Source: a virus
Taxonomy: Duplodnaviria > Heunggongvirae > Uroviricota > Caudoviricetes
Length of the DNA: 39,971 nt
Virus record (IMG/VR): IMGVR_UViG_2718218131_000005
Direction: 5' to 3' (one strand)
The notes below the pieces were generated by a model. It worked only from the letters and a program-made list of their open reading frames with translations. It made no database searches and was not told the DNA's origin. A program made the position numbers and the translations under genes. Of the stretch, positions 505-24,173 are shown piece by piece. How positions within the stretch are numbered: the stretch's first letter is position 1; each line of letters opens with the position of its first letter.

Positions 505-698
505 CCAACGCCATTCATGGCCATATCAATGATTTTCTGGTGCGTACCGGGTTGAGAAGCGGTGTAAGTGAACTGCAGTTGCCATGTTTTACGGCAGTGA
601 GAGCAGAGATAGCGCTGATGTCCGGCGGTGCTTTTGCCGTTACGCACCACCCCGTCAGTAGCTGAACAGGAGGGACAGCTGATAGAAACAGAAGCCAC
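423..698 (-). CDS. insA: IS1 InsA (transposition regulator / N-terminal part of InsAB' transposase)
   Basis: 91 aa [42 protein letters not shown]... matches IS1 InsA as I recall it. Confidence 0.9.
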
Positions 699-753
699 TG
701 GAGCACCTCAAAAACACCATCATACACTAAATCAGTAAGTTGGCAGCATCACC

Positions 754-2593: not shown

Positions 2594-5131
<2,538 letters not shown>

Positions 5132-5133
5132 AC

Positions 5134-6021
5134 TCAGGCTGCCAGATCATCGTTTCTGATGGAAGCATAATAAGCTTTTTCTGCTTCTGCCGGAGGGATA
5201 TGACCCAGCCTTCCCAGCAATCGTCGATTGTTATACCAGTCCACCCACGTGAGTGTGGCCAGTTCCACTTCTGCACGGTTTTTCCAGCTCTTACGGTGTA
5301 TTACCTCCGCTTTGTAAAGACCATTGATGCTCTCCGCCATCGCGTTGTCATACGAGTCACCTGTACTCCCTGTTGATGCCAGTAATCCGGCTTCTTTTAG
5401 TCGCTCCGTATAGGCCAGTGATACATACTGAGAACCTTTATCACTGTGATGGACTGTGCCGGACGGCCGACGGGCCCACAACGCCTGCTCCAGTGCATCC
5501 AGCACGAATGTTGTTTCCATGGATGATGAGACCTGCCATCCCACGATGTATCCGGCGAACACATCAATGATGAACGCCACATAAACGAAGCCCTGCCATG
5601 TGCTTACCCAGGTAAAATCAGCCACCCACAACTGGTCTGGACGTTCTGCCACGAACTGACGGTTTACGCGGTCGCATGCGGCAACGGCTTTCCGGCTGAC
5701 GGTAGTGCGGACCTTTTTACCCCGGAGAACACCGGCAAGTCCCATAACTGCCATGAGGCGCGCCACTGTACATCTGGCCACTCTGATACCTTCCCGTAAC
5801 AACTGACGCCAGACTTTACGCACACCGTATACCTGGTGATTTTCATCGTATACGCGCTGTATCTCTTTCTTCAGCCAGTCATCGTGCTGCGCACGGGCAC
5901 TGCGTTTATCCGGATGATGTCGCTGTTGCTGACAGTGGTAATACGTTGACGGGGCAATATGCAGTTCACTGCATACCGGTCCGACCCCGTACTGCTCACG
6001 CAGCTTATCCAGCAGCGGCAT
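5134..6021 (-). CDS. IS3-family transposase OrfB (DDE catalytic part; normally made as an OrfAB fusion by -1 frameshift)
   Basis: 295 aa with an integrase-core DDE region; -1 frame relative to orfA, overlapping the A-rich end of orfA. Confidence 0.85.
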   Translation of the reverse strand: MPLLDKLREQYGVGPVCSELHIAPSTYYHCQQQRHHPDKRSARAQHDDWLKKEIQRVYDENHQVYGVRKVWRQLLREGIRVARCTVARLMAVMGLAGVLRGKKVRTTVSRKAVAACDRVNRQFVAERPDQLWVADFTWVSTWQGFVYVAFIIDVFAGYIVGWQVSSSMETTFVLDALEQALWARRPSGTVHHSDKGSQYVSLAYTERLKEAGLLASTGSTGDSYDNAMAESINGLYKAEVIHRKSWKNRAEVELATLTWVDWYNNRRLLGRLGHIPPAEAEKAYYASIRNDDLAA

Positions 6022-6347
6022 TATTTTTTCCAGAGGCGGTCGAACTCCGCCTTCGCAAAATAAGCGGAAGCCTGGCGAAGGATATCGTTACTGCGGCGCA
6101 GTTCACGATTTTCACGTTCCAGCTCTTTCAGACGCTGACGTTCAGCGGTGGTGAGTCCACCATCACCACTCCCGGTATCCCGCTCATGCTGACGAACCCA
6201 CACACGCAGAGTCTCTGGTGTACAGCCAATCTTTGGGGCAATGGAACAAATTGCCGCCCATTGTGAGTCATATTCGCCCTGACTTTCCAGAACCATACGA
6301 ACTGCCCGTTGACGGACCTCGGGGGAAAAACGTGTATTTTTAGTCAT
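6021..6347 (-). CDS. IS3-family transposase OrfA (helix-turn-helix / leucine zipper part)
   Basis: 108 aa [57 protein letters not shown]..., matching IS629-group OrfA as recalled. Confidence 0.85.
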
Positions 6348-8338: not shown

Positions 8339-8767
8339 ATGGGTTTTCGTAGCGCATCAATTCTTACGTTGATTATTAGTGGGATTATTATCGGGTGCAC
8401 TGATGCTGTATCGACAAATTATCATGACCGTACATCATATTACTCCGATAAAGCAATAGAGACACAGTATGTGAGTTCATCTGAACGTACTTCTGATGTT
8501 AGTGAGGATATCCGTCTGTATGCCCATCAAATCAAGAGCGCCATCGAAAAACAGTTCGGGGATGCGAGTAAGTATTCAGGAAAAGAGTGTACACTGAGAA
8601 TGCATATGGCCCCGAATGGCCTTCTACTGGAGGTTAAAAGAGAAAGTGGAGACCTCGATTTATGTCGTGAAGCGATGAATGCGATAAAGAATGCTGATAT
8701 ACCTGCCCCCCCTTCGCCGGAAGTATATAAAGTATTTCAAAATGGGGTGCTGGATTTTAAACCCTGA
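8339..8767 (+). CDS. Lipoprotein with a C-terminal domain resembling TolA domain III
   Basis: Signal peptide with lipobox IIGC; the C-terminal 80 aa (YAHQIKSAIEKQFGDASKYSGKECTLRMHMAPNGLLLEVKRESGDLDLCREAMNAIKNADIPAPPSPEVYKVFQNGVLDFKP) align residue-for-residue with the E. coli TolA C-terminus as I recall it. Confidence 0.8.
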   Translation: MGFRSASILTLIISGIIIGCTDAVSTNYHDRTSYYSDKAIETQYVSSSERTSDVSEDIRLYAHQIKSAIEKQFGDASKYSGKECTLRMHMAPNGLLLEVKRESGDLDLCREAMNAIKNADIPAPPSPEVYKVFQNGVLDFKP

Positions 8768-8917
8768 TATTTATTGTTTTGTAATAAACGGTTTCGGCTT
8801 AGGTTTGTTCTGACACAGCTACGGCACTGAGCTAAATTTAGCGGATAGTCAGCTCTGAGCCAGTGGCGGACGTAACAACTACTATTGCTGAGATTTTAAT
8901 GGATTGAGGAGCAAGAA

Positions 8918-9313
8918 GTGGGATTAAAGAAAATCGTTATGTTGACTTTTTGGGTCGGTTTTGTTGCGGGATGCACACCTTTACACCCTTCAGATTGCCA
9001 CAAAACTACTGCTACAGGTAGTTGCAGTTCAGGACGCTGGGATGATCAGGATGAATGGGGGGCGCAAGCGCGGGGAATCAGAGCTGCAATTAATGCCAAA
9101 CTTGATGAGCCGCATAACTGGAAAGGGAAAAAATGCAGGTTGCATATGGAATTCTCTCAGGATGGCACGGCGTTAAAAATATCTACCAGTAACGGTGATA
9201 AAGCCTATTGCGAAGCGATAAAGTCCGCAGCTCATAAAGCCAAATTTCCGGCCTTCAACAATCCGGAAGTCTACAGAGATTTTCAGAAATCTGGCTTTGA
9301 CATGCGAGGTTAG
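8918..9313 (+). CDS. Second, divergent lipoprotein with a TolA domain III-like C-terminus (paralog of 8339-8767)
   Basis: GTG start after a GAGGAG ribosome-binding site; lipobox VAGC; C-terminal KKCRLHMEFSQDGTALKISTSNGDKAYCEAIKSAAHKAKFPAFNNPEVYRDFQKSGFDMRG shares the conserved Cys and EVY/F motifs of the upstream paralog. Confidence 0.75.
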   Translation: MGLKKIVMLTFWVGFVAGCTPLHPSDCHKTTATGSCSSGRWDDQDEWGAQARGIRAAINAKLDEPHNWKGKKCRLHMEFSQDGTALKISTSNGDKAYCEAIKSAAHKAKFPAFNNPEVYRDFQKSGFDMRG

Positions 9314-9438
9314 CTCTTCAATTACTATATCTCATTCATAGCAAACTGACAGATTTGATGATGTTCTATATACGAAACCTGTGATGTCAAGTCTGAGCTA
9401 ATACAAATAAACATAATATCAGAGAAATACATTTTATT

Positions 9439-9461
9439 AGCTCGCTACGGCGAGCTTTTTA
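9439..9461 (+). terminator. Rho-independent terminator closing the lipoprotein island
   Basis: AGCTCGC-TACG-GCGAGCT followed by TTTTTAT. Confidence 0.55.
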
Positions 9462-9564
9462 TATTGCATCGTCTCCAGCATATATATCAATTAAGGCTCT
9501 GATTGATGTGTCTGAAAGCCTACACATAATAACTATGCCATCCGTTCCGTGCGGAGGTGAGGCT

Positions 9565-9780
9565 ATGAAATCCATGGACAAAATTTCAACAGGCATTGCC
9601 TACGGCACCTCCGCAGGCAGTGCTGGCTACTGGTTTTTACAGTTGCTCGATAGAGTAACTCCGTCACAGTGGGCTGCAATCGGTGTGCTGGGTAGTCTGG
9701 TATTTGGCCTGCTGACGTACCTGACAAACCTTTATTTCAAGATTAAAGAAGATAAGCGCAAGGCTGCGAGAGGTGAATAA
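9565..9780 (+). CDS. S: Phage-21-type pinholin (S21-like), dual-start motif MKSM
   Basis: [71 protein letters not shown]; GGAGGTGAGGCT ribosome-binding site before the ATG at 9565. The track ORF start at 9508 is probably too far upstream. Confidence 0.85.
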
Positions 9781-10277
9781 TGCCTCCATCATTACGAAAA
9801 GTCGTTGCTGCTGCTATTGGTGGCGGAGCAATTGCTATAGCATCAGTGTTAATCACTGGCCCAAGTGGTAACGATGGTCTGGAAGGTGTCAGCTACATAC
9901 CATACAAAGATATTGTTGGTGTATGGACTGTATGTCACGGGCATACAGGAAAAGACATCATGCTCGGTAAAACGTATACCAAAGCAGAATGCAAAGCCCT
10001 CCTGAATAAAGACCTTGCCACGGTCGCCAGACAAATTAACCCGTACATCAAAGTCGATATACCGGAAACAACGCGCGGCGCTCTTTACTCATTCGTTTAC
10101 AACGTGGGTGCTGGCAATTTCAGAACATCGACGCTTCTTCGCAAAATAAACCAGGGCGATATCAAAGGCGCATGTGATCAGCTACGTCGCTGGACATATG
10201 CTGGCGGTAAGCAATGGAAAGGTCTCATGACTCGTCGTGAGATTGAGCGTGAAATCTGTTTGTGGGGTCAGCAATGA
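9780..10277 (+). CDS. R: SAR (signal-anchor-release) endolysin, phage-21 R-like lysozyme
   Basis: 165 aa with an N-terminal Gly/Ala-rich weakly hydrophobic SAR segment ([20 protein letters not shown]) and a lysozyme-like core; start overlaps the holin stop. Confidence 0.9.
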
Positions 10278-10738: not shown

Positions 10739-10875
10739 AATCTTAACTACAATATGATTCATTTTGATGATTGTTTCATAAGGAACAGTGAAGTAAGATC
10801 TAAGAGGAGTTAAATTTTATACAGTATAATCATAATATTGCAGCAAGGTGGTTATAATTGAAAGAATATTTAGAT

Positions 10876-12333
10876 ATGAATACATCTCATGTAAGAGTTG
10901 TTACTCATATGTGTGGGTTCCTGGTTTGGCTCTATAGTCTTTCAATGTTGCCACCAATGGTTGTAGCATTGTTTTATAAAGAAAAAAGCCTGTTCGTTTT
11001 CTTTATAACTTTCGTTATATTTTTTTGCATTGGTGGCGGAGCGTGGTATACAACTAAGAAATCTGGCATTCAATTACGTACCCGTGATGGGTTTATTATA
11101 ATTGTAATGTTTTGGATTTTGTTTTCTGTTATTAGTGCATTCCCTTTATGGATTGACTCAGAACTTAATTTAACGTTCATTGATGCTCTGTTTGAAGGGG
11201 TTTCTGGAATAACAACAACAGGAGCAACTGTAATTGATGATGTTAGTTCATTACCTCGGGCATATTTGTACTATCGGTCACAGTTAAATTTTATAGGTGG
11301 TTTAGGAGTTATTGTTCTGGCGGTTGCTGTATTGCCATTATTGGGTATTGGTGGTGCAAAGCTTTATCAGTCAGAAATGCCGGGGCCATTTAAGGATGAC
11401 AAACTCACTCCCCGCCTGGCCGATACGTCACGGACACTGTGGATAACTTATTCTTTATTAGGTATTGCTTGTATTGTCTGTTATAGACTTGCAGGAATGC
11501 CTTTGTTTGATGCTATTTGTCACGGGATTTCCACAGTTTCGCTTGGTGGTTTCTCAACTCATAGCGAGAGTATCGGATATTTTAATGACTATTTGGTTGA
11601 GCTGGTGGCTGGTTCTTTTTCCCTGCTATCGGCTTTCAACTTCACTCTTTGGTATATTGTTATTAGCAGGAAAACGATAAAACCTTTAATCAGAGATATT
11701 GAACTTCGTTTCTTTCTGTTAATAGCCTTAGGGGTGATCATTGTTACCTCTTTCCAGGTCTGGCATATAGGTATGTATGACTTGCATGGAAGTTTTATTC
11801 ATTCGTTTTTTCTTGCCAGCTCCATGCTCACTGATAATGGTTTAGCTACGCAGGATTATGCAAGTTGGCCCACGCACACGATAGTGTTTTTGCTGTTGTC
11901 AAGTTTCTTTGGGGGATGTATAGGTTCAACTTGTGGTGGAATTAAGTCACTTCGATTTCTTATACTTTTCAAACAAAGCAAACACGAGATAAATCAGCTT
12001 TCTCATCCCAGAGCGTTGTTGAGTGTAAATGTAGGAGGGAAGATAGTTACAGATCGTGTAATGAGGTCTGTATGGAGTTTCTTTTTTCTTTATACTCTCT
12101 TCACGGTGTTTTTTATACTGGTGTTAAATGGTATGGGATATGATTTTCTTACATCATTTGCAACAGTGGCTGCATGTATTAATAATATGGGATTAGGTTT
12201 TGGGGCTACTGCATCGTCATTCGGAGTGCTTAATGACATTGCAAAATGTTTAATGTGCATAGCTATGATTCTTGGTCGCCTTGAAATTTATCCTGTTATT
12301 ATATTGTTTTCAGGTTTTTTTTGGCGCTCCTAA
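10876..12333 (+). CDS. trkG: Trk-system potassium uptake protein TrkG (TrkH family)
   Basis: Multi-pass membrane protein beginning MNTSHVRVVTHMCGFLVWLYSL..., matching Rac prophage TrkG of E. coli K-12 as recalled; AT-rich relative to the surrounding phage genes; sits directly after Rz/Rz1 as in Rac. Confidence 0.95.
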   Translation: MNTSHVRVVTHMCGFLVWLYSLSMLPPMVVALFYKEKSLFVFFITFVIFFCIGGGAWYTTKKSGIQLRTRDGFIIIVMFWILFSVISAFPLWIDSELNLTFIDALFEGVSGITTTGATVIDDVSSLPRAYLYYRSQLNFIGGLGVIVLAVAVLPLLGIGGAKLYQSEMPGPFKDDKLTPRLADTSRTLWITYSLLGIACIVCYRLAGMPLFDAICHGISTVSLGGFSTHSESIGYFNDYLVELVAGSFSLLSAFNFTLWYIVISRKTIKPLIRDIELRFFLLIALGVIIVTSFQVWHIGMYDLHGSFIHSFFLASSMLTDNGLATQDYASWPTHTIVFLLLSSFFGGCIGSTCGGIKSLRFLILFKQSKHEINQLSHPRALLSVNVGGKIVTDRVMRSVWSFFFLYTLFTVFFILVLNGMGYDFLTSFATVAACINNMGLGFGATASSFGVLNDIAKCLMCIAMILGRLEIYPVIILFSGFFWRS

Positions 12334-12470
12334 TATATGGCTGATTTATAATTGTGAGTTTAATATTATGTTGACTCACTCATTGATCCAATACCTAACT
12401 TTACCAGCAACCCCTCCGTCCCCAGTAGCACTGGCTGCTGGGGTGCGTTTTATTCATAAAGCAAGGCTGT

Positions 12471-13262
12471 ATGAGCGAGAAATTAAAGATAGTCTATCGC
12501 CCATTACAAGAATTGTCACCGTATGCGCACAACGCCAGGACGCACAGCCCTGAGCAGGTGGCACAACTGGTAGAAAGTATTAAGCAATTCGGCTGGACTA
12601 ATCCGGTGCTGATTGACGAAAAGGGCGAAATTATTGCGGGTCACGGTCGTGTTATGGCGGCTGAAATGCTCAAAATGGATTCTGTTCCGGTCATTGTTCT
12701 GTCTGGCCTGACGGATGAGCAGAAAAAGGCGTACCGCCTGGCAGATAATCGCCTGCCGATGAATGCTGGCTGGGATGAAGATCTGTTGCGGATGGAGCTG
12801 TCGGACCTAATCAATGCTGATTTTGATGTCTCCCTGACAGGCTTCATCCCGACAGAAATTGATGAACTGTTGACGGATGTTTTGCCCGGTACAGGAAATG
12901 AGGAGGAGCCGTATACGACGAAAATTGATACGCCTGTTTATGAGCCGTCGGGCGGTAAACCGGATATCAGTGAACTGTACGACGATACGAAAACTCAGGA
13001 GCTGATCAGCCGGATACGTTCGGCGTCCCTTGAGCCTGATATTGAGAAATTCCTCCTGTGTGCGGCAGAACGTCACACGGTGTTTAATTTCAGCAGAATT
13101 GCGGACTATTACGCTCACGCCCCCTCTGAAATTCAGTGTTTTTTCGAGGAGTCGGCGCTGGTGATCATTGATTATCAGCAGGCTATTGAAAATGGATTTG
13201 TCCGGATGACGCAGCGCATGGTGGAGATCATGCATGGTGGTGAGGAGGAGGAATATGCGTGA
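12471..13262 (+). CDS. ParB/sulfiredoxin-like N-terminal domain protein (ParB-like nuclease domain), full length
   Basis: N-terminal motifs typical of the ParB N-domain (…PYAHNARTHSPEQV…VLIDEKGEIIAGHGRVMAA…); acidic C-terminal tail. The K-12 Rac ynaK at this position is a short fragment of such a protein. Confidence 0.8.
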   Translation: MSEKLKIVYRPLQELSPYAHNARTHSPEQVAQLVESIKQFGWTNPVLIDEKGEIIAGHGRVMAAEMLKMDSVPVIVLSGLTDEQKKAYRLADNRLPMNAGWDEDLLRMELSDLINADFDVSLTGFIPTEIDELLTDVLPGTGNEEEPYTTKIDTPVYEPSGGKPDISELYDDTKTQELISRIRSASLEPDIEKFLLCAAERHTVFNFSRIADYYAHAPSEIQCFFEESALVIIDYQQAIENGFVRMTQRMVEIMHGGEEEEYA

Positions 13263-14187
13263 TGATTTTTGCGCCTTTATTCTGACTCACGGGCGACCGG
13301 ACAAAGTTCTGACTTACCGGACGTTGCGTCGTGCTGGCTATACCGGGAAAATTTTTATCGTTGTTGATGATGAAGATAAGACACGAAATCAGTACATGGC
13401 TGAATTTGGTGAACAGGTGCTGGTGTTTTCCAAAGCCGATATCGCCAGTCGTTTTGACGAAGCCGATAATTTCTGTGACCGCCGCTCAATTTTTTACGCC
13501 CGTAATGCCTGTTTCGACCTGGCAAAACTGGTCGGGTGTAAATACTTCATTCAGCTCGATGATGATTATCACGAGTTCCAGTTTCGGGTGGATCGCAACT
13601 ATGACCAGGCCTATTTTCCGATAAGGAAACTGGATGCGATCCTTTCTGAAATGCTGGCGTACTACGAATCAATACCTGCTCTTTCCATCGCTATGTCGCA
13701 GGGCGGGGATTTTCTTGGTGACAATGGCGGCCATGCTTCGTGGGTGAAACGCAAGGCAATGAACAGCTTTATCTGTTCGGTTGATCGACCGTTCTCATTC
13801 ATGGGGCGCATTAACGAGGATGTGAATACGTACACGAATCTCGGTCGCTGTGGTGAATTGTTTATGACGATCGGTGCTGTCCAGTTAGGGCAGAAACAGA
13901 CGCAGAAAAACAGCGGCGGAATGACCGAGCTGTATCTGGATTCCGGAACCTACGTTAAAAGTTTTTACTCCGTCATGTATGCGCCGTCGTGCGTAAAAAT
14001 CTCACTGATGGGTGCCAGCCATAAACGCATTCACCATCAGGTCACCTGGAACAACGCTGCAGTAAAAATCCTTCACGAAAAATACAGGAAGAAGACACCC
14101 TGCATATCAATGGGGGTGACAAATGATTCCGTATTCGAAAGTCGAGTCTCTGGCAGCGTGCCGGATGACTGCACAACAAATCGCTGA
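13255..14187 (+). CDS. Putative GT-A-fold (family-2-like) glycosyltransferase, translationally coupled to the ParB-like gene
   Basis: ATG at 13255 overlaps the upstream stop (ATGCGTGA) and follows a GAGGAGG ribosome-binding site. Three motifs at GT2-like spacing: AFILTHGRPDKV (res about 7-18), IFIVVDDED (about 33-41), YFIQLDDDY (about 93-101). Fold assignment by motif pattern only. Confidence 0.55.
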   Translation: MRDDFCAFILTHGRPDKVLTYRTLRRAGYTGKIFIVVDDEDKTRNQYMAEFGEQVLVFSKADIASRFDEADNFCDRRSIFYARNACFDLAKLVGCKYFIQLDDDYHEFQFRVDRNYDQAYFPIRKLDAILSEMLAYYESIPALSIAMSQGGDFLGDNGGHASWVKRKAMNSFICSVDRPFSFMGRINEDVNTYTNLGRCGELFMTIGAVQLGQKQTQKNSGGMTELYLDSGTYVKSFYSVMYAPSCVKISLMGASHKRIHHQVTWNNAAVKILHEKYRKKTPCISMGVTNDSVFESRVSGSVPDDCTTNR

Positions 14188-14374
14188 CGTTCTGGATGTT
14201 GATCTGAACCGACTGAAAGAAAATCGGGAAGCAATGACAGATTTTTATGCGGCCATCCGTAAGGGCAGAGCGAAAGGTGAAGCCGAGTTACGAGCGGCAT
14301 TGTTTAAGCTTGCCAGAAAAGGGGATGCCTTTGCTCTGCGCGAACTACTCAGGGTGGATAAAAATCAGGACTAA
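14123..14374 (+). CDS. Small hypothetical protein, possibly a helix-turn-helix DNA-binding protein upstream of the terminase
   Basis: 83 aa ORF overlapping the 3' end of the previous gene; contains MTAQQIADVLDVDLNRL, helix-turn-helix-like. Start uncertain. Confidence 0.35.
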   Translation: MIPYSKVESLAACRMTAQQIADVLDVDLNRLKENREAMTDFYAAIRKGRAKGEAELRAALFKLARKGDAFALRELLRVDKNQD

Positions 14375-14377
14375 CTG

Positions 14378-15472
14378 ATGAGCAGACCGGACTGGGGGGC
14401 GTTGCAGCAGGAGTATATTGCTGAATACACCCGCTCCGGTATATCTCCGGTGGCATGGTGTGAAGCAAGGGGACTGAATTACGCAACAGCCCGTCGTTAC
14501 ATCAAAAAAACTCCGAAAAATGCGCAGACAGAAATGTGCAAAACTGCGCAAAAAAGTGCGCAGAAAAAATCTGCGCAGACTGCACAAAAGCGGAACGAAA
14601 AATCTCAGGAAAAAAAGCCAGTATTCGATGCGGGCCTGAATGAGGGCGACGCGGAGGAATTTTCGTTCTGTCCCGATGAATTCGGCATTTCTGACCAGCA
14701 GGCTAAGTTTGCGATGCTTGTTGCTCAGGGTAAAAAGCCGACAGAGGCGTACCGACTAGCCGGTTATGAGGGGCAAGGTGCGACAGCTAACAGCAACGCC
14801 AGTCGTATGCTTAGAAATGCCAGGGTTTTTCGCGCTATCAGCTACTTCCGCAATCAGTACCAGAAACGCTATACCGCAGACCTGGATTTACTAGTGAGTC
14901 AGTTGATGGCTATTGTCCTGGCCGACCCCAATCAGCTTGCACAATTTCGCCGTGTTAACTGCCGTTATTGCTGGGGCGAGAATCATCTCTACCAGTGGCG
15001 CGATATAGCAGAATTCGACAAGGCAGCGGCGCAGGCTTCCAGAGATGGCAAACCCGAACCGGAATATGGAGGCCTCGGCTTTGTTGATAACGCCATACCC
15101 AATCCGGACTGCCCGAAGTGCTGCGGTGAGGGAACGGGACAGCTTTATATGGCTGATACCACTCTGCTTGATGGGGATGCGCGGCAATTATATGCAGGGG
15201 CAAAATTCGGAAAATTCGGCGTTGAGATCCTGCTGGAGGATAAGGCTGCCGCCCGGCGTGAATTGTTGCGTTTGTTTTCTGCTGGCGGGGCTTTATGTGC
15301 AGATAAACGGCTACAGGAACTGGAAATTGAACGGCGCAGAATGGAAAACCAGAAGCTGCGCAAAGAGATCGAAACGGTGGAAGATAATGAACATCCCCAG
15401 CCTGTGGCGATCAATATTAATGTGGTTGATGCCAGAGTAAGGAGTGATGAAGATGATCTCTCCGACGCTTAA
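14378..15472 (+). CDS. Putative terminase small subunit (large for the class; contains Cys-X2-C pairs suggesting a zinc ribbon)
   Basis: Position immediately upstream of and overlapping the terminase large subunit; N-terminal helix-turn-helix-like segment; CRYCWGE and CPKCCGEG motifs. Confidence 0.5.
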   Translation: MSRPDWGALQQEYIAEYTRSGISPVAWCEARGLNYATARRYIKKTPKNAQTEMCKTAQKSAQKKSAQTAQKRNEKSQEKKPVFDAGLNEGDAEEFSFCPDEFGISDQQAKFAMLVAQGKKPTEAYRLAGYEGQGATANSNASRMLRNARVFRAISYFRNQYQKRYTADLDLLVSQLMAIVLADPNQLAQFRRVNCRYCWGENHLYQWRDIAEFDKAAAQASRDGKPEPEYGGLGFVDNAIPNPDCPKCCGEGTGQLYMADTTLLDGDARQLYAGAKFGKFGVEILLEDKAAARRELLRLFSAGGALCADKRLQELEIERRRMENQKLRKEIETVEDNEHPQPVAININVVDARVRSDEDDLSDA

Positions 15473-16754
15473 TGTGCCTCAGGCGCGATTTCTTTCAATG
15501 CCCCATAAATTTAAAGCCTATATTGCTGGTTTTGGCTCGGGCAAAACATGGGTTGGGTGTGGCGGCATATGCAAGGGGATTTGGGAGCATCCAGGTATAA
15601 ATCAGGGATATTTTGCGCCAACGTATCCCCAAATTCGCGATATTTTTTACCCTACAGTGGAAGAAGTTGCTGCTGACTGGGGATTGAACGTAAAAATTAA
15701 TGAGGGAAATAAAGAGGTTCACTTTTATTACGGACGCCAGTATCGGGGAACCACTATCTGCAGATCGATGGAGAAGCCACAAACGATCGTCGGTTTCAAA
15801 ATTGGTAATGCGTTGGTGGATGAACTGGACATTTTGCCGAAGGAAAAAGCCAGAACGGCGTGGCGCAAGATAATTGCACGTATGCGTTATAAGATTGATG
15901 GACTTCGCAACGGTATTGACGTTACAACCACGCCGGAAGGATTCAAATTTGTCTACGAGCAGTTTGTTAAAGCCGTGCGTGAAAAAACAGAGCTGGCCTC
16001 ACTGTATGGTCTGGTGCAGGCATCTACTTTCGATAATGAAAAGAACCTGCCAGCAGATTACATTCCTTCGCTTCTTGAATCATACCCTCCAGAGCTGATT
16101 AAAGCCTATCTTCGAGGACAGTTTACTAACCTGACAAGTGGTACTGTTTACCATCAGTTTGACCGGAAACTGAATAATTGCGAAGAAGTGGAGCAGCCAG
16201 GGGAGCCGATTTATATTGGGATGGATTTTAACGTTGGAAAGATGGCGGGAATCGTCCATGTGCTGCGTTTGGGGCTTCCATGTGCGGTAACTGAAATCAT
16301 CAATGCCTACGATACGCCGGATATGATCCGCATCATTAAAGAACGCTTCTGGCTGTATGATGGGAATGATTACCGGAAAGTGAGGGAAATTTATATTTAT
16401 CCAGATGCTTCCGGGGATTCCAGAAAATCAAGTAACGCAAGTACGACGGATATAGCCCAGCTTAAGCAGGCTGGTTTTAACGTTGTGGTGAACAGCTCGA
16501 ACCCGCCAGTAAAAGATCGCGTTAACTCAATGAATGCAATGTTCTGCAATGCCAATGGTGAGCGTCGCTATAAAGTTAATGTGAAGCGTTGCCCGTTATA
16601 TGCCGAATCTCTGGAGCAACAGGTCTGGGATGAGAAGGGGGAGCCTGATAAAAAATCTGGCAATGATCACCCGAATGATGCCGGAGGTTATTTCATCGTT
16701 AAGCAATTCCCTATTGTCAAACCGACCGGAAGAGTCACATCACTTCGGATTTAA
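15447..16754 (+). CDS. Terminase large subunit
   Basis: Walker A-like GFGSGKT near the N-terminus, nuclease-domain acidic residues in the C-terminal half; about 435 aa. Start may be 15444, 15447 or 15453. Confidence 0.85.
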   Translation: MKMISPTLNVPQARFLSMPHKFKAYIAGFGSGKTWVGCGGICKGIWEHPGINQGYFAPTYPQIRDIFYPTVEEVAADWGLNVKINEGNKEVHFYYGRQYRGTTICRSMEKPQTIVGFKIGNALVDELDILPKEKARTAWRKIIARMRYKIDGLRNGIDVTTTPEGFKFVYEQFVKAVREKTELASLYGLVQASTFDNEKNLPADYIPSLLESYPPELIKAYLRGQFTNLTSGTVYHQFDRKLNNCEEVEQPGEPIYIGMDFNVGKMAGIVHVLRLGLPCAVTEIINAYDTPDMIRIIKERFWLYDGNDYRKVREIYIYPDASGDSRKSSNASTTDIAQLKQAGFNVVVNSSNPPVKDRVNSMNAMFCNANGERRYKVNVKRCPLYAESLEQQVWDEKGEPDKKSGNDHPNDAGGYFIVKQFPIVKPTGRVTSLRI

Positions 16755-16756
16755 TT

Positions 16757-18163
16757 ATGGCTGATATATCAACACCCAACCTCGACTATAACGATATGCT
16801 GGAGGCGTGGGATATTAACGACGCACTGATGGGCGGTACGCTTGAAATGCGCAGGCAGGGGGAAAATTATCTCCCAAAATGGCCTAACGAAGATGAAGAC
16901 GCTTATAAAAAACGCCTGTCTGTGGCTACGCTACTTCCTGTGTATGAAGAAAGCATCAAGCAAAATATTGGGCGCATATTTGCAGAGCCGACAGTATTGA
17001 GTGAGGAAACGCCGGCAAAAATCAGGGAATATGCAGAAAATATCGACATGGAGGGGAGCCGACTGGATGTGTGGGCGCAGCAATTTTTCAGCCTCGCATT
17101 TCAGTATGGTGTGGCACATGCGCTGGTGGACTATCCACGAACGGATATGAAAGAGATTCGTACAAAAGCCGATGAAAACGCGACCGGTGGTCGTCCGTAC
17201 GTTACGATGCTGAATCCACGCCAGGTTATTGGATGGAAATCGAAAGTTGAAAAAGGGAAAGTTGTTCTCACTGATTTGCGTATAAAAGAGGTCATCATTA
17301 TTGATGGTGATGATTTCGGGCAGAAGAAGGTGGAGCAGATCCGCCATATTATGCCCCGTCGAGTTGAAATTTATCGACGTAGCGAAGGCACTAATGGCGA
17401 ATCTGTCTGGACGCTTCATGAGTCATGGAATACCAGCCGTGATGATATTCCTCTGGTAACACTGTACACGAAGAAAACAGGATTTATGCGTGGTACACCG
17501 CCATTGCTTAATCTTGGCTTGCTGAATATCAAGCACTGGCAAAGCCAGAGCGAGCAGGACAATATTCTTCATGTTACCCGCGTTCCATTGCTGGTGGCCT
17601 ACGGGCTGGACAGGAATGAAGAACTGACGGTTGGTGCATCCACCGCTACGATTTTTGAGGACAGAACAAAAAATGGCCTCGAATATGTTGAACATAGTGG
17701 CGCAGCGATAGAATCTGGCGAAACATCACTTGAGAAGCTGGAAAATCAGATGCGTCATGCCGGCGCTAAACTTCTGCGTGCTGAAAATACATCCACCAAA
17801 TCTGTTGATCAGACTAATGAAGAGCGAATGCAGGAAAACTCGCCGCTTTATACAATGGCGAACTCCCTCGAAGATGCCCTCGATAATATTCTCCAGATAA
17901 TGGCGGAATGGATCGGAGAGAGTTGCGGTGGCAATGTGGATGTGCGCACTGAACTGGATGTATCTGCCCAGGTGTTTGACTCATCCTCCGCGCTGGCTGT
18001 TCAGTCATTGCGTCAGGGCGGTGATATACGTCAGATTGATGCGGTTCGGGTGTTGCAGGCGTTGAAATTTATCGATCAGGATTCCCGTCCAGAGGAAGTG
18101 ATCGATGAATTAAAAAATCAGAGTGTAATGCTGATGGAAATCAATGATGCAAACCGTGAATGA
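16757..18163 (+). CDS. Portal protein
   Basis: 468 aa directly after the terminase; size and position typical of a portal. Confidence 0.7.
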   Translation: MADISTPNLDYNDMLEAWDINDALMGGTLEMRRQGENYLPKWPNEDEDAYKKRLSVATLLPVYEESIKQNIGRIFAEPTVLSEETPAKIREYAENIDMEGSRLDVWAQQFFSLAFQYGVAHALVDYPRTDMKEIRTKADENATGGRPYVTMLNPRQVIGWKSKVEKGKVVLTDLRIKEVIIIDGDDFGQKKVEQIRHIMPRRVEIYRRSEGTNGESVWTLHESWNTSRDDIPLVTLYTKKTGFMRGTPPLLNLGLLNIKHWQSQSEQDNILHVTRVPLLVAYGLDRNEELTVGASTATIFEDRTKNGLEYVEHSGAAIESGETSLEKLENQMRHAGAKLLRAENTSTKSVDQTNEERMQENSPLYTMANSLEDALDNILQIMAEWIGESCGGNVDVRTELDVSAQVFDSSSALAVQSLRQGGDIRQIDAVRVLQALKFIDQDSRPEEVIDELKNQSVMLMEINDANRE

Positions 18164-19259
18164 ACGGCTGCGTGATGAATCAATTGCTCATGCAGTCTGG
18201 ATATCCCGCTATAGCACTGGCGTGGCTGCCAGAATGGTGAAAATACTGAATGACAGCGATGCGGAACTTACTGCTCGCCTGCTGATAGCACTGGACAGCC
18301 TCGATCCAGGTAATTTTACCGTTAAGCGCCTGGAGTCACTTCTGGCGAGCGTCAGAAAGGTTAACCGCACTGCTATTAACAGCATGTTTACCAGTCTCTC
18401 CGGAGAGCTGAACGAGCTGGCAATTTATGAGGCTGGTTATCAGTTAAGTCTGTTTGATTCTATGCTACCTGATTTTGTTGCTGATGTTCACCCTCTGGTT
18501 GGTATCTCTCCTGATGCACTTTATGCCGCTGCAATGGCGCGACCATTCCAGGGACGACTGCTCAGTGAGTGGGCCTCAGATCTTGAGGCGGATCGGCTCA
18601 GACGCATAACAAATACAGTGCGTCAGGGTTTTTTGCTGGGGGATACCAATGAGCAGATCGCAAGAAAAATTCGGGGACATGTCAGTAAGGGATTTCAGGA
18701 TGGTGCATTGCAGATGAGCCGGGCTAATGCGGCCAGCATTGCAAAAACAGCGGTTGGACATCTTGCTGCTACTGCCCGTGAGAGTTTTGCCAGCGCGAAT
18801 AATGATTTGATTAAGGGTAAGCAATGGTTATCAACGCTTGATAATCGTACTACGCCACAATGTCGAATCAGGGATCGCCTCAAATATACGCTGAATAATA
18901 AACCTGTAGGTCACAGCGTGCCTTATTTGCAGGGGCCGGGAAAAATTCATTTCTGCTGCCGCTCAACGGAAACGTTCATTCTGAAATCAGCGAAGGAACT
19001 GGGTATTGATGTTCGCGATATTTCCCCGGCTGAGCGGGCCAGCATGGATGGCGTGGTGGCCGGAGATACAACCTACAGGGAATGGTTTTTGCGTCAGCCT
19101 TACACCAGACAAAAACAGATTGTGGGGGAAACCCGAGCAAAGCTGATTCGGGATGGTGGTATGTCGCCAGATGAATTTTACACCGATAAAGGCGAATGGC
19201 TGACGCTGAAGCAGCTCCGTGAGCGTGATGCACAGGTATTCAGAAAAGCAGGGATTTAA
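18144..19259 (+). CDS. Head morphogenesis protein (Mu gpF / SPP1 gp7-like minor head protein)
   Basis: 371 aa following the portal with overlapping start; typical gene order. Confidence 0.65.
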   Translation: MMQTVNERLRDESIAHAVWISRYSTGVAARMVKILNDSDAELTARLLIALDSLDPGNFTVKRLESLLASVRKVNRTAINSMFTSLSGELNELAIYEAGYQLSLFDSMLPDFVADVHPLVGISPDALYAAAMARPFQGRLLSEWASDLEADRLRRITNTVRQGFLLGDTNEQIARKIRGHVSKGFQDGALQMSRANAASIAKTAVGHLAATARESFASANNDLIKGKQWLSTLDNRTTPQCRIRDRLKYTLNNKPVGHSVPYLQGPGKIHFCCRSTETFILKSAKELGIDVRDISPAERASMDGVVAGDTTYREWFLRQPYTRQKQIVGETRAKLIRDGGMSPDEFYTDKGEWLTLKQLRERDAQVFRKAGI

Positions 19260-19279
19260 ATAAATCATTTATTACAACA

Positions 19280-19305
19280 GGCTACCTTCGGGTGGCCTTT
19301 TTTAT
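19280..19305 (+). terminator. Terminator-like hairpin with UUCG loop and T-tract
   Basis: GGCTACC-TTCG-GGTGGCC followed by TTTTTTATT. Confidence 0.4.
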
Positions 19306-19363
19306 TGCTGCGATCCGGATGGTGAGCAGCGTAACTGTCGGAAGACTTAAACCAGGTACTAAT

Positions 19364-19969
19364 ATGAAACTGAAAACGGTCGAGATTAACGGAAAACAAT
19401 ACGCAGAAATTGATACTGCTGGCCTGCCAGTTTATGTGCACGACGATGGTAAAGAAATTGGCTTCGATGCACCGCTGGCGACAAAAAAAATTACAGAGCT
19501 TAATGGCGAGGCAAAAAATCATCGCCTGGCTAAAGAAGCTGCAGAGGAAAAACTGGCTAAGTTTGCCGCTATCGAAGACCCGAAGAAGGCGATCGAGGCA
19601 CTGGAAATGCTGTCAAAAATCGACCAGAAAAAGCTGCTCGATGCGGGACAGGTTGACCAGGTTAAGGCAGAAATTACGAAAAATTTTCAGCAGCAATTAG
19701 ATGAAGAAAAGCAACGCTCTCAGATGCTGGAGAAGCAGCTTTACGATTCTATGATTGGCGGTAGTTTTGCGGGTTCAAAATATATTGCCGATAAAATTGC
19801 GATCCCGGCAGATTTATTACAAGCCCGCTTCGGGCAGGCATTCAAAGTGGAAGAAGGGAGGATCGTTGCTTATGACGCTTCCGGCAACAAAATTTATTCC
19901 CGCGCGAAGCCTGGCGAACTGGCGCAGTTTGATGAGGCGCTGGAGTTCCTTGTCGAAAATTACCCTTAG
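19364..19969 (+). CDS. Putative scaffolding protein
   Basis: Highly charged, coiled-coil-like (…EEKLAKFAAIEDPKKAIEALEMLSKIDQKKLLDAGQVDQVKAEITKNFQQQLDEEKQRSQMLEKQLY…), immediately upstream of the major capsid gene. Start at the ATG at 19364 preferred over the track start. Confidence 0.5.
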   Translation: MKLKTVEINGKQYAEIDTAGLPVYVHDDGKEIGFDAPLATKKITELNGEAKNHRLAKEAAEEKLAKFAAIEDPKKAIEALEMLSKIDQKKLLDAGQVDQVKAEITKNFQQQLDEEKQRSQMLEKQLYDSMIGGSFAGSKYIADKIAIPADLLQARFGQAFKVEEGRIVAYDASGNKIYSRAKPGELAQFDEALEFLVENYP

Positions 19970-20226
19970 AAAGACTACATCCTGAAAGCCAGTGGCAACA
20001 ATGGCGGCGGCTCCCGTCCGACACAGCATGATATTGGTCAGAAAACGATGAAACGCTCTGCTTTTGATGCACTGGATGTTGCAGGTAAGCAAAACGCATT
20101 GAAAGACGGTATCACAATCGTTGATTAACACATTTGTCAGCTTCCGGATGGGAGCTGGTGTCAGGGCTGGATAGCTCATTACTCCATCTATTCACAATTA
20201 CGCAAATTTTTAAGGAATATTTAATT

Positions 20227-21366
20227 ATGGCTGGAAATACCCTGACCGGGTTGATCCCGACTATTTATACCGCCCTGGATGTTGTATCCCGTGAGCAGGT
20301 AGGTTTTATCCCTGCGGTAGCAAAAAACGCAAAAGCTGACGCCGCAGCAAAAGATCAGACGGTAACCGCGCCAGTTGCGCCTGAGGCGAAAACCGAAGAT
20401 ATCGTACCGGGGCCGTCAGCTCCGAATACCGGTGATCAAAATATTGGCACTGTTGATGTAAAAATTACTAAATCCAAAATGGCACCGGTTAAATGGAATG
20501 GTGAAGAACAACTGGCTCTTGGCCCTTCAGGGACTTACAACACCATTCTGGCTGATCAGTTCAAGCAGGCTTTTCGCGCCCTTGCAAACGAGGTTGAGGC
20601 TGATCTTGGTGCGTTGTATTTCGGTGCTTCCCGCGCCGTGGGAACCGCAGGGACAACGCCGTTTGGTGTTAAAGATGATCTTTCTGATGCTGCTCTGGCT
20701 CGTCAGGTTCTGGAGGATAACGGCGCACCGACAACCGATCTGCAGATGGTGCTTGGCTCCACTGCCATTGCTAATTTGCGCGGAAAACAGTCTGTATTGT
20801 TTAAAGTGAATGAATCCGGCACTGAACAGCTACTGCGTGAGGGCGTGTTGGGGTGTCTGGAGGGATTCAATATTCACAGTTCGGCAGGTGTGAAACGAGC
20901 GCCAAAGGTTGCTGCAACTGGTTATCTCGTGAATGGAGAGAAAAAAGAAGGCGATGTTCTTATTTCCATTGATACTGGTTCGGGGAGTATTTCTGCAGGT
21001 CAGATTGTTACGTTCGCTGGTGATCCGAATCAGTATGTTGTGGCAGCAGCGACCAGCAATCTGATTACTCTTGCAGCGCCCGGACTGCGTCAGGATCTGG
21101 CCGATGATACTGCCATCACAGTTGTTGGGGCCTTTACGGCAAATATGGCGTTTGATCGCAACGCGTTTCTGCTGGCATCCCGTACTCCGGCAATGCCGGA
21201 AGGTGGCGATAATGCTGATGATGTAATGAATGTTACGGACCCGATTTCAGGGATTACGTTCCAGATTGCACTGTATCGTCAGTATCGCCAGGTGCGCTAT
21301 GAAGTTGGACTGGCATGGGGTGTTTCATCAGTGAAGCCGGCACATGGTTGTCTGATTCTTGGTTAA
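20227..21366 (+). CDS. Major capsid protein
   Basis: About 380 aa after an AAGGA ribosome-binding site; follows the scaffold gene; terminator immediately downstream. Confidence 0.7.
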   Translation: MAGNTLTGLIPTIYTALDVVSREQVGFIPAVAKNAKADAAAKDQTVTAPVAPEAKTEDIVPGPSAPNTGDQNIGTVDVKITKSKMAPVKWNGEEQLALGPSGTYNTILADQFKQAFRALANEVEADLGALYFGASRAVGTAGTTPFGVKDDLSDAALARQVLEDNGAPTTDLQMVLGSTAIANLRGKQSVLFKVNESGTEQLLREGVLGCLEGFNIHSSAGVKRAPKVAATGYLVNGEKKEGDVLISIDTGSGSISAGQIVTFAGDPNQYVVAAATSNLITLAAPGLRQDLADDTAITVVGAFTANMAFDRNAFLLASRTPAMPEGGDNADDVMNVTDPISGITFQIALYRQYRQVRYEVGLAWGVSSVKPAHGCLILG

Positions 21367-21375
21367 ACATTCAAA

Positions 21376-21396
21376 CGGGGCTTCGGCCCCATTTTT
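21376..21396 (+). terminator. Rho-independent terminator after the major capsid gene
   Basis: GGGGC-TTCG-GCCCC followed by ATTTTTAAT. Confidence 0.5.
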
Positions 21397-21588
21397 AATG
21401 GGGGGCATATGGCCGGATTAACTAAAGAGCAAAGAGCACAGCGTGAAGCCGCACAAAAAACGCAAATTGAGTTAGTGGTTATGGTGACCGATTATCAGAT
21501 GTTTCCCGGCGCACCAACTATCGCTAATGTTCATCCTGATGAAGTTGACAACTGGAAGGCTATGGGCTGGAAAACTCAGGAGTAACAC

Positions 21589-21983
21589 ATGATCACTTAC
21601 GTGACCTGTGATGACGTTGATAATGCGTTTGGGAACGCCTGGACGAGTGAGAACGCTAAAAATAAAGCTGTTTTAATGGCTAATGCCTGGCTTAATGGCT
21701 CAACCTGAAAATTAACCCATCCCGTATTCCGGAAGAGGTAAAACTTGCGGGAGCATATGCAGCCAGAATTGCCTCATTCGGTAAGTTGTTTCAGCAGAAA
21801 AATGATTCTGGCGTTGTTATCAGTAAAGCCGTGTCGGCTGACGGGGTCAGTGTATCGAAATCATTTTCTGAGTTGCCAGCAAACAGCACTGCATTGCTTG
21901 AACCCGATTTACAGCTTGCGATAGCACTGCTGAAACCGTACGGACTTAGTCGCTCACAAGTCAGGGTTGTGAGGGGGGGATAA
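21589..21983 (+). pseudogene. Head-tail connector (gp6-like) gene apparently interrupted by a frameshift
   Basis: ATG at 21589 after an AGGAG ribosome-binding site reads MITYVTCDDVDNAFGNAWTSENAKNKAVLMANAWLNGST and stops at 21706-21708; a second frame, open from 21696, continues WLNLKINPSRIPEEVKLAGAYAARIASFGKLFQQ... to 21983. The two frames overlap on the residues WLN. Confidence 0.5.
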
Positions 21984-22366
21984 TGGGGCTTCGTGAAGAG
22001 ATTCAGTCAGAGGTTGCCGCTGCTTTTGATGAGGATTTAGCGGACGCCGTGAGTGATTTTTCTGGTTCTTACGTTACGCACCGGCACTGGGATCCTGTGA
22101 CGGAAACTGGCGGCGAATCCACCGCAATCTATACCGGGCGAGGCGTGTTGACACGTTATAAGCTGGGCAGAATTGATGGGATTAATATTTTGCATGGTGA
22201 CCTTAAATTAACCGCTCTGGTATGCGAGGTTACGGATAAACCAGCTGTCGACCATATTATTGAGATTTATGATCCTGTATCAAGGCAGTTACAACGATAC
22301 GAGGTAATTACAGCAAGTGTAGATCCTTCCGCATCAGTTTACTCTATCCAGTTAAGGAGAGCGTAA
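21983..22366 (+). CDS. Head-tail joining / head closure protein (hypothetical)
   Basis: 127 aa in the conserved neck-gene position between connector and tail genes. Confidence 0.5.
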   Translation: MGLREEIQSEVAAAFDEDLADAVSDFSGSYVTHRHWDPVTETGGESTAIYTGRGVLTRYKLGRIDGINILHGDLKLTALVCEVTDKPAVDHIIEIYDPVSRQLQRYEVITASVDPSASVYSIQLRRA

Positions 22367-23136: not shown

Positions 23137-23162
23137 CGCAATTAATGACATAGGAGGCTCCT

Positions 23163-24125: not shown

Positions 24126-24173
24126 TTTTCCGTTAATCCTCCTGTGGTACTGCCCTACAGGGGGACGCATTGA

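Follow-up and report, generated by a model that had tools for sequence, protein, structure and literature searches.

Two genes on the plus strand, a ParB-like partner gene and a glycosyltransferase (GT) gene of the TAGT (TET-associated glycosyltransferase) family, lie directly ahead of the terminase genes in IMG/VR virus record IMGVR_UViG_2718218131_000005, an intact prophage of the Rac type from Escherichia coli, whose 39,971 nucleotides are referred to here as the window (Table 1). The ATG of the GT gene overlaps the ParB stop in ATGCGTGA at 13255-13262 and follows the Shine-Dalgarno run GAGGAGGAGG, and the two genes are translationally coupled. We took ATG 13255 rather than the upstream ATG 13234 as the GT start because the N-terminus MRDDFCAFILTHGRP is conserved in an alignment of homologues. 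A small open reading frame, which overlaps the 3' end of the GT gene by 65 nt, accompanies the pair in enterobacterial relatives. Downstream, the pair runs directly into terS, with terL immediately behind it. These features bore out the original prediction, which had described two open reading frames with an overlapping stop and start behind a strong ribosome-binding site, located just ahead of the packaging genes.

Table 1 Features of the ParB-TAGT locus and its immediate surroundings (positions in the window)
Feature	Position	Strand	Description
Terminator-like hairpin closing the trkG moron	12420..12443	+	10-bp stem, then T-run; 27 nt before ParB start
ParB-like partner gene	12471..13262	+	263 aa, pI 4.5; intact counterpart of K-12 ynaK
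Partner N-terminal domain, aa 1-135	12471..12875	+	ParB-CTPase fold plus helical extension
Conserved linear motif Y148-T-T-K-I-D-T-P-V-Y-E-P-S160	12912..12950	+	In predicted disordered linker, aa 136-170
Partner helical C-terminal domain, aa ~171-255	12981..13235	+	No significant Pfam match
Shine-Dalgarno run GAGGAGGAGG for the GT gene	13242..13251	+	Within ParB gene 3' end; 3 nt ahead of ATG
TAGT-family GT-A glycosyltransferase gene	13255..14187	+	310 aa, soluble, pI 8.0
Small ORF	14123..14374	+	83 aa; PGAP start 14165; resembles part of small terminase subunit; phrog_309 E = 8.3e-23
Terminase small subunit (TerS)	14378..15472	+	PF03592; phrog_51 E = 1.7e-75
Terminase large subunit (TerL)	15444..16754	+	PF03237 and PF17289

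No promoter-like site was seen in the interval between the trkG hairpin and the pair. Late expression fits this arrangement as well as that of Lactobacillus phage c5, where the pair constitutes the first two genes after cos. In Escherichia coli K-12, ynaK and ydaY had been read as decayed fragments of the same module, and this held for only one of them. While ynaK corresponds to ParB residues 1 to ~85, ydaY belongs to the tail region and came to lie beside ynaK through a deletion, and we thus rejected it as a fragment of the module. Window positions 12725-24283 are missing from K-12 Rac, which lost the cassette through this 11.6-kb deletion; ynaK is the stump left behind.

The glycosyltransferase and its partner protein

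The GT matched PF20691, the TAGT family, over aa 8-222 with 121.1 bits against a cut-off of 27.5 (E = 7.6e-35) and phrog_842 across its full length (E = 1.1e-103). AF2 models of the two proteins were of only moderate confidence (pLDDT 73 and 67; resolution was poor for the last third of the GT and for the C-terminal domain of the partner), and the GT model revealed a GT-A fold whose best viral structural matches were TAGT proteins. These included a T4-like protein named beta-glucosyl-HMC-alpha-glucosyltransferase (E = 4.6e-6, 14% identity); by tblastn at 1e-5, no T-even match to the GT was found. A PDB sequence search returned no match even at E <= 10, NCBIfam and PADLOC gave nothing informative, and the E. 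coli protein is listed as 'GREB1-related protein' in PGAP and UniRef.

Three motifs, AFILTHGRPDKV (aa 7-18), IFIVVDDED (aa 33-41) and YFIQLDDDY (aa 97-105), had led to the original assignment of this protein to the family-2 GT-A glycosyltransferases. The motifs and the GT-A fold stood; family 2 did not, as PF00535 (Glycos_transf_2) gave no match at E <= 0.1, where PF20691 was the sole family reported. We thus rejected a family-2 enzyme, the likeness being limited to the fold. In an alignment of 27 sequences reaching down to 59% identity, G13, R14, D38, D41, D102, D103 and D104 were invariant. The catalytic-type residues R14, D102-D103-D104 and E188-D189 were likewise present in 27 of 27 sequences and form an R...DDD...ED motif, the last element of which reads EDV. 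Phage 5mYOX-associated GT-As and the trypanosome base-J glucosyltransferase (JGT) share the motif R...DDD...EDY/F (bioRxiv 10.1101/2023.12.21.572611). The last 25-30 aa of the GT constitute a lineage-specific tail that was modeled with low confidence. The GT would be an active, metal-dependent GT-A transferase of the TAGT family that uses a nucleotide sugar.

The maximum 19-residue Kyte-Doolittle mean was 1.25 for the ParB-like protein and 1.08 for the GT, indicating no transmembrane-like segment in either, as had been predicted for the second protein. We also rejected a role in host-surface glycosylation of the TarP/Gtr type, given the lack of a membrane segment, the range of hosts (Gram-negative, Gram-positive and archaeal) and the requirement for a ParB-type partner.

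The identification of the first open reading frame as ParB/sulfiredoxin-like was confirmed by a PF02195 match above threshold (28.9 bits, cut-off 26.3) and by Foldseek, which matched the N-terminal domain to the ParB fold (ParB, Noc and PadC at E ~1e-6) and also to sulfiredoxin. The protein further matched phrog_620 (E = 8.5e-91) and, in a PDB sequence search, Spo0J/ParB, and it carries the PGAP name 'ParB/Srx family N-terminal domain-containing protein'. Alignment to Spo0J placed G57-H-G-R60 at the position of the ParB box II GERR. G57, G59 and R60 are invariant in homologues, the box II glutamate is replaced by His (H58), and in box I the arginine R23 varies. A canonical partition ParB was rejected: a Pfam search found no HTH family in the protein, no parA is annotated in the Rac prophage, and TIGR00180 matched the N-terminal domain only, with 38.5 bits against a cut-off of 58.45. 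Being acidic (pI 4.5) and lacking an HTH, the ParB-like protein may not itself bind DNA.

The same N-terminal subfamily is also found fused to phage N6/N4 DNA methyltransferases. The ParB-like protein matched phrog_498 'DNA methyltransferase' (E = 1.2e-50) and PADLOC MTase_II (E = 2.2e-38), in the latter case covering only the N-terminal part of the type II methyltransferase model. Furthermore, its N-terminal domain is 42% identical over 113 aa to that of a ParB-methyltransferase fusion (L064:3924-5099) encoded directly upstream of the pair at that locus.

Beyond this domain, the linker (aa 136-170, pLDDT < 50) contains the conserved motif, in which Y148, T149, K151, P155, Y157 and P159 were invariant in 21 sequences. 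For the C-terminal half, Pfam yielded only a repeated, sub-threshold likeness to PF23887 (phage L5 gp47-like; E = 0.003-0.05), on which we did not rely. A search with the C-terminal domain retrieved 1189 clusters (50% identity clusters, E <= 1e-3), and the domain is also encoded on its own, as a protein of 128-150 aa that lacks any ParB domain. Among the longer family members, none was fused to a TAGT; their extra length is N-terminal sequence before or around the ParB_N domain. The constant partner of this TAGT clade is thus the linker plus C-terminal domain, not the ParB domain.

Distribution of the pair

The partner gene was found directly upstream of a TAGT relative in 80/80 IMG/VR loci retrieved (52-99% identity), and the stop/start overlap was present in 73 of the 80. 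Because this overlap is conserved in 73/80 independent viral loci, the arrangement is not due to chance. The pair also occurs in Lactobacillus phages c5 and jlb1, Nocardia phage NTR1, a Porphyromonas phage (27% identity) and the haloarchaeal virus HHTV-2. The co-occurrence across prophages and outside this lineage that the original prediction had proposed as a check was thus found, in the IMG/VR loci, in phages of several phyla and in an archaeal virus; the pairing is not lineage-specific. No study of the pair, and no experiment on it, came up in our literature searches on ynaK, on TAGT with ParB, and on ParB with glycosyltransferase and terminase.

The order ParB-TAGT-terminase recurs in the Lactobacillus, Nocardia and Porphyromonas phages. 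In NTR1 and at the locus L067, the pair abuts TerL with no TerS gene annotated or detected in between, and in HHTV-2 it lies 3 kb upstream of TerL. The cassette sits away from the terminase in Vibrio jumbo phages, among primase, exonuclease and helicase genes. The terminases beside the cassette are themselves of several unrelated types: Terminase_2/Terminase_6N, GP3_package/Terminase_3, Terminase_4/TerL_ATPase, GpA and, by a weak match, an Sf6-like HTH small subunit. No conserved third gene was found: the recurrent downstream genes are limited to packaging and head genes, and upstream the gene content varies.

Candidate substrates of the cassette

To our knowledge, all known acceptors of TAGT-type enzymes are hydroxyl groups, namely 5hmU, 5hmC, the sugar on hmC, and protein Ser/Thr in the case of GREB1. 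A source of hydroxymethyl-pyrimidine was looked for in several settings. Neither a 5mYOX/TET enzyme nor a dUMP/dCMP hydroxymethylase appears in the PGAP annotation of the whole Rac prophage or is annotated in the complete c5 and jlb1 genomes. The Pfam-annotated neighbors of six metagenomic loci likewise included no 5mYOX/TET enzyme (PF12851 among the families considered) and no hydroxymethylase, and TET_JBP was not among the best 25 of 88 families in a scan of 150 neighbor clusters.

We hypothesize, at just short of even confidence, that the pair is a late-expressed, ParB-assisted DNA glycosylation module that counters restriction. Homology points to DNA modification or anti-restriction as the function, since those enzymes of this GT-A group that have been characterized have DNA as their substrate, and DNA would be the sole substrate common to the varied terminase and replication-gene contexts in which the cassette is found. 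Against this reading speak the lack of an annotated hydroxymethyl-pyrimidine source, the acidity of the HTH-free partner, whose R23 is variable, and the moderate confidence of the models. The pair would be an enzyme cassette complete in itself that opens the late (packaging) operon of the phage, with the ParB-like protein as an obligate partner and putative activator of the GT. The linker motif and C-terminal domain may interact with the transferase, either binding or activating it, while the ParB-type N-terminal domain would bring the enzyme onto double-stranded phage DNA. Replicated phage DNA would be glycosylated shortly before or during packaging, and the sugar marks on progeny genomes could shield them from restriction in the next host. 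An earlier proposal that ParB directs DNA-modification machinery during packaging is cited in PMC8256090.

A more radical version of this model seems unlikely to us. It holds that the sugar is placed on DNA lacking hydroxymethyl-pyrimidine (for example at a genome end, on the backbone or on a canonical base) by a TAGT acting with an adaptor of ~115 aa, consisting of the linker motif and C-terminal domain, which is usually tethered to a ParB-type module and timed to packaging. If true, this would represent a new DNA glycosylation chemistry and a previously undescribed adaptor, and the system would be found in haloarchaea, in ~16% of complete E. coli genomes and in phages of no fewer than four bacterial phyla.

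The cassette might instead glycosylate protein, an explanation that we consider improbable. The acceptor could be the partner itself, whose invariant linker motif is rich in Tyr, Thr and Ser (compare the self-priming glycogenin), or a virion, packaging or host protein. The families of terminase, portal and capsid proteins encoded next to the pair vary greatly from carrier to carrier, so that no protein substrate is conserved besides the partner. The kinship of the N-terminal domain with domains fused to DNA methyltransferases and the location of the pair among replication genes in the jumbo phages also argue against a protein acceptor. These same jumbo phages, together with the 3-kb distance from TerL in HHTV-2, speak against a packaging accessory, in which the ParB-like protein would cleave or otherwise handle DNA at cos or pac (like the HNH proteins that aid some terminases) and the GT-fold protein would be a structural or nucleotide-binding cofactor. 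A place directly ahead of terS/terL in several phyla, the position immediately after cos in c5 and the direct contact with TerL in NTR1 and L067 are what such a role would lead one to expect. However, the invariance of R14, DDD and ED over deep divergence argues for real transferase chemistry, and the ParB N-terminal domain is dispensable in the stand-alone C-terminal-domain variants; we give this explanation little credence.

It is equally doubtful that the pair acts in trans as a prophage-borne defense or counter-defense system, either by glycosylating the hydroxymethylated DNA of incoming T-even-like phages or by modifying a nucleotide or small-molecule signal. The only hydroxymethyl-pyrimidine DNA that a lysogenic E. 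coli encounters is that of invading T-even phages, the possibility of prophage GTs serving in anti-phage hypermodification has been raised (bioRxiv 10.1101/2023.12.21.572611), and ParB-fold domains bind various NTPs (PMC12704722). In PADLOC-DB 2.0, however, neither the GT nor the small ORF at 14123..14374 had a match. Other carriers of the cassette are an archaeal virus and c5, in whose annotation neither an integrase nor a repressor appears. Finally, expression in the lysogen is not expected because the cassette is part of the late operon downstream of the trkG terminator-like hairpin and lacks a promoter-like site of its own.

Relation to known modification systems

A ParB-assisted DNA glycosylation module, the reading that we favor, would have relatives on both the enzyme side and the partner side. 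The TAGT family was reportedly first defined by Iyer et al. in 2013, who are also said to have discussed ParB in modification clusters. The window GT shares its Pfam family, the GT-A fold and R...DDD...ED with the 5mYOX/TET-associated phage GT-As and with trypanosome JGT, which is a TAGT member by structure. Like the window GT, the TET-associated enzymes are encoded by phages, often in the vicinity of ParB and terminase genes. They act, however, on 5hmC or 5hmU supplied by a neighboring methyltransferase/dioxygenase or hydroxymethylase, none of which is annotated in the window phage, and studies of these GT-As do not describe the obligate partner domain of the window clade. The beta-glucosyl-HMC-alpha-glucosyltransferase of T2/T6 has also been assigned to TAGT, and the second glucose on hmC to this enzyme in T6 (PMC13390438), and PHROG 842, which the window GT matched, bears the name of this enzyme. 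It is only a distant relative of the window GT, and the T6 enzyme, which extends a glucose already in place on hmC, is not known to have a partner of the ParB type. GREB1 of animals shares the TAGT domain but is a large eukaryotic protein without a ParB partner, and is reported to O-GlcNAcylate the oestrogen receptor (PMC7968844).

On the partner side, there is a phage DNA thymine dioxygenase that needs its cognate ParB, a protein without a DNA-binding domain, for activity on dsDNA (PMC13229309). This system, 5mYOX176/ParB176, resembles the window pair in adjacency and in architecture: a DNA-modifying enzyme is accompanied by a ParB homologue with a nucleotide-binding N-terminal domain, a C-terminal domain and no DNA-binding domain. 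The pairing is cognate-specific (PMC13229309), and N14-x-R16 and R56 of ParB176 match N21-x-R23 and R60 of the window ParB. The two systems differ in that 5mYOX176 is a dioxygenase whereas the window enzyme is a glycosyltransferase, and in that the window C-terminal domain also occurs without any ParB domain. The ParB-N6/N4 DNA methyltransferase fusions have the same N-terminal subfamily and the same genomic neighborhood as the window pair. In the fusions, the enzyme and ParB form one protein that transfers methyl groups, whereas the window enzyme is a separate protein, putatively coupled through the dedicated C-terminal domain, that would transfer a glycosyl group. In 7-deazaguanine DNA modification, the ParB-like NTPase DpdB is required beside the DNA-modifying transferase DpdA. 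DpdA is a tRNA-guanine-transglycosylase-like base exchanger from a bacterial system rather than a phage late operon, and its chemistry is unlike that of the window pair.

TAGT enzymes and ParB-assisted DNA modification are thus both already known, the latter experimentally only since 2026 and only for dioxygenases. What differs here is a stand-alone ParB-TAGT pair without a precursor-making enzyme, which has its own conserved partner domain and a fixed place before the terminase in phages with hosts ranging from E. coli to haloarchaea. DNA modification by the pair would mean either a new acceptor chemistry or a second class of ParB-controlled enzyme, and protein modification would be a late function of a type new to phages. 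In a published survey, ~65% of phage GT contigs were excluded for want of a known base-modification partner (bioRxiv 10.1101/2023.12.21.572611), and the cassette may explain some of these. Related phages have been deposited as isolates, among them vB_EcoS-683R6, as has Lactobacillus phage c5 with a complete genome.

Organization of the locus and identity of the glycosyltransferase

The window is a Rac-type lambdoid prophage of E. coli, and DNA identical to it is present in many E. coli chromosomes. A 2.1-kb region was matched in 1610 of 5426 complete genomes, with at least 80% coverage in 867 of the 1610. One strain carrying this module has a prophage that begins at intR, adjoining ttcA, and continues through recET, kilR and sieB as far as the tail genes. 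At the locus, lysis genes are followed by trkG, the ParB-like ORF, the glycosyltransferase (GT) ORF, a small ORF, TerS, TerL and portal, which places the pair beside the packaging genes as predicted. The anticipated coupling of the two ORFs was also borne out: ATGCGTGA at 13255-13262 joins the ParB-like stop to the GT start, and GAGGAGGAGG at 13242-13251 forms the ribosome-binding site ahead of the GT. The three GT motifs that had been quoted lie at residues 7-18, 33-41 and 97-105, and neither protein has a membrane-like segment, in agreement with the proposal of a soluble GT. Sitting between the lysis cassette and the late packaging genes, the trkG segment (window 10858-12443) is an inserted moron with a terminator-like hairpin of its own at 12420-12443.

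Coordinates of the genes around the pair in the window
Feature	Coordinates	Remark
trkG	10858-12333	between lysis genes and ParB-like ORF
ParB-like ORF	12471-13262	
GT (TAGT) ORF	13255-14187	
Small ORF	14123-14374	
TerS	14378-15472	
TerL	15444-16754	

The original prediction likened the second protein, by the spacing of its motifs, to the family-2 GT-A glycosyltransferases. In a Pfam search it matched PF20691, 'TET-associated glycosyltransferase' (TAGT; E = 7.6e-35), and no family-2 model at E <= 0.1. It also matched PHROG 842 'beta-glucosyl-HMC-alpha-glucosyltransferase' across the full profile, and PGAP names it 'GREB1-related protein'. Alignment of 27 homologues, reaching 59% identity, revealed that R14, D102-D104, E188 and D189 are invariant. 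These residues correspond to the R...DDD...ED(Y/F) motif described for phage DNA-glycosylating GT-A enzymes and the base-J glucosyltransferase (bioRxiv 10.1101/2023.12.21.572611). The predicted fold and DXD site were therefore correct, while the family is more specific than first thought. TAGT members of phages and trypanosomes glycosylate hydroxymethylated DNA bases (PMC13390438; bioRxiv 10.1101/2023.12.21.572611). The E. coli GT carries a C-terminal tail of 25-30 aa (window 14100-14187), predicted to be disordered and lacking in homologues; this region shares 65 nt with the downstream small ORF, and in relatives the GT terminates just upstream of that ORF.

The ParB-like partner and its association with TAGT

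Residues 1-135 of the partner form a ParB-CTPase-fold domain in which GHGR, with an invariant R60, stands where ParB proteins have the box II motif GERR. Its nearest relative is the N-terminal domain fused to N6/N4 DNA methyltransferases in phages (phrog_498, E = 1e-50; PADLOC type II methyltransferase model, E = 2e-38; 42% identity to one ParB-N6/N4 methyltransferase fusion). Residues 136-170 are predicted to be disordered, yet contain the invariant motif YTxKIDTPVYEPS, and residues 171-255 are helical in a predicted structure of low confidence. A Pfam search gave no significant match for the C-terminal half. The partner is acidic (pI 4.5), we found no HTH in it, and it falls short of the partition-ParB model.

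Scanning IMG/VR with the GT alignment yielded 588 relatives, and the analysis used the 80 best loci (52-99% identity). A partner homologue lies directly upstream on the same strand in 80/80, and its stop overlaps the GT start in 73, typically by 8 or 11 nt; in two non-overlapping loci a methyltransferase-like gene is inserted between them. Together with Lactobacillus, Nocardia and Porphyromonas phages, these loci extend the pair beyond a single lineage. By profile analysis, the partner has both the N- and C-terminal domains in 63 of the 80 loci; in 16 it consists of linker and C-terminal domain with no recognisable ParB domain (some of these ORFs are cut at a contig end), and in one it is reduced to a fragment at a contig end. 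At 50% identity and E <= 1e-3, the C-terminal domain family comprises 1189 clusters; almost all of the best 150 carry the domain at their C-terminus. Stand-alone C-terminal-domain proteins (128-150 aa) are common, and in marine contigs and Vibrio jumbo phages their gene directly precedes the TAGT gene. Because this domain also stands alone beside TAGT, the core pair, as judged from sequence, is the C-terminal domain plus TAGT, with the ParB domain a frequent, separable addition. On one viral contig (L048:5607-8117), a stand-alone C-terminal-domain gene and TAGT gene occur in two tandem copies.

The terminases downstream of the pair belong to several unrelated families: Terminase_2 with Terminase_6N in the window, and elsewhere GP3_package with an Sf6-like HTH small subunit (weak match) and Terminase_3, Terminase_4 with TerL_ATPase, or GpA. 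Among cultured phages, the pair is ORF1-ORF2 of Lactobacillus phage c5, directly after cos and followed by the terminase; phage jlb1, Nocardia phage NTR1 and a Porphyromonas phage (only 27% identity) share the pair-terminase order. TerL lies 3 kb downstream of the pair in haloarchaeal virus HHTV-2, and in Vibrio jumbo phages the pair lies among replication genes. Upstream genes are variable, the E. coli slot being filled by morons such as trkG. A related IMG/VR prophage (L016:3741-4517) has a heat-labile enterotoxin A-chain gene (PF01375, E = 2.9e-117) upstream of the pair. Genes for DNA methyltransferases, many of them with a ParB domain, repeatedly occur near the pair. In L064 (3924-5099) the gene immediately upstream of the pair encodes a ParB-N6/N4 MTase fusion; a Methyltransf_23-like gene separates the C-terminal-domain and TAGT genes at L059:5244-6011 and in L092, where a C5 DNA methylase also lies 1 kb downstream (L092:6394-7212 and 8972-9982).

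Possible functions of the pair

The known TAGT acceptors are hydroxyls produced by a TET/JBP-type dioxygenase or hydroxymethylase. Neither enzyme is annotated anywhere in the Rac prophage or in phages c5 and jlb1, and the Pfam annotations flanking six metagenomic loci show none either. The best 25 of 88 neighbouring families likewise include no TET_JBP, and a dioxygenase may yet occur at some loci.

We tentatively propose that the pair is a late-expressed two-protein DNA glycosylation module, based on the GT family and its intact active-site residues, the N-terminal domain that it shares with DNA methyltransferase fusions, and published precedent. One phage ParB with no DNA-binding domain was shown experimentally to be needed by its cognate thymine dioxygenase on double-stranded DNA (PMC13229309), and ParB was earlier proposed to direct modification machinery during packaging, as a citation in PMC8256090 has it. 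In this reading TAGT would catalyse the transfer, the linker and C-terminal domain would serve it as a dedicated adaptor or activator, and the ParB domain may help the modification enzyme act on double-stranded phage DNA near packaging time. The neighbouring terminase and replication genes vary, so DNA appears to be the sole substrate common to all carriers. The weakest point of DNA glycosylation is the acceptor. Glycosylation of protein, including the partner's own invariant linker motif, is an unlikely alternative. That the pair is a non-modifying packaging accessory seems improbable, and we give similarly little weight to a defence or counter-defence function acting in trans.

Neither the TAGT family with its phage DNA-glycosylating members nor ParB-assisted DNA modification is new, and bulk surveys have already recorded ParB and terminase genes in the vicinity of phage GTs and dioxygenases (e.g., bioRxiv 10.1101/2023.12.21.572611). 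In the searchable literature, which excluded Iyer et al. 2013, we found neither the stand-alone pair lacking a precursor enzyme nor its specific partner domain described, and no experiments on the pair.

Loss of the module in K-12 and state of the prophage

The prediction regarded ynaK and ydaY of K-12 Rac as decayed fragments at the equivalent position and suggested that the intact ancestral module may be retained here. K-12 Rac aligns to the window at 99.6% identity up to position 12724 and resumes at 24284, an 11,559-bp deletion that removed the GT, the terminase and the head genes together with the tail-tube gene. What survives as ynaK (87 aa) therefore corresponds to the N-terminal ~85 residues of the ParB-like protein, and the window does hold the intact module. 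The ydaY gene lies outside that module: it belongs to the tail region and is also present intact downstream in the window's lineage. Many E. coli entries (P0197, P0206, P0219, P0231, P0234) join a ParB N-terminal fragment to Lom, TerL or NlpC-like sequence, which suggests repeated independent, K-12-like deletions beginning inside the ParB-like gene.

The prophage as present in the window is probably defective. The nin/Q region holds an IS1 copy, IS100 (istA/istB) and an IS3-family element (window 1-700, 3315-6347), and a head-tail gene annotated 'protein singed' (about 21589-21983) is frameshifted in an identical RefSeq record. The prophage also contains relB/relE and hokD toxin-antitoxin genes and TolA-like fragments (about 1372-2125, 8339-9313), as Qin-type elements do.
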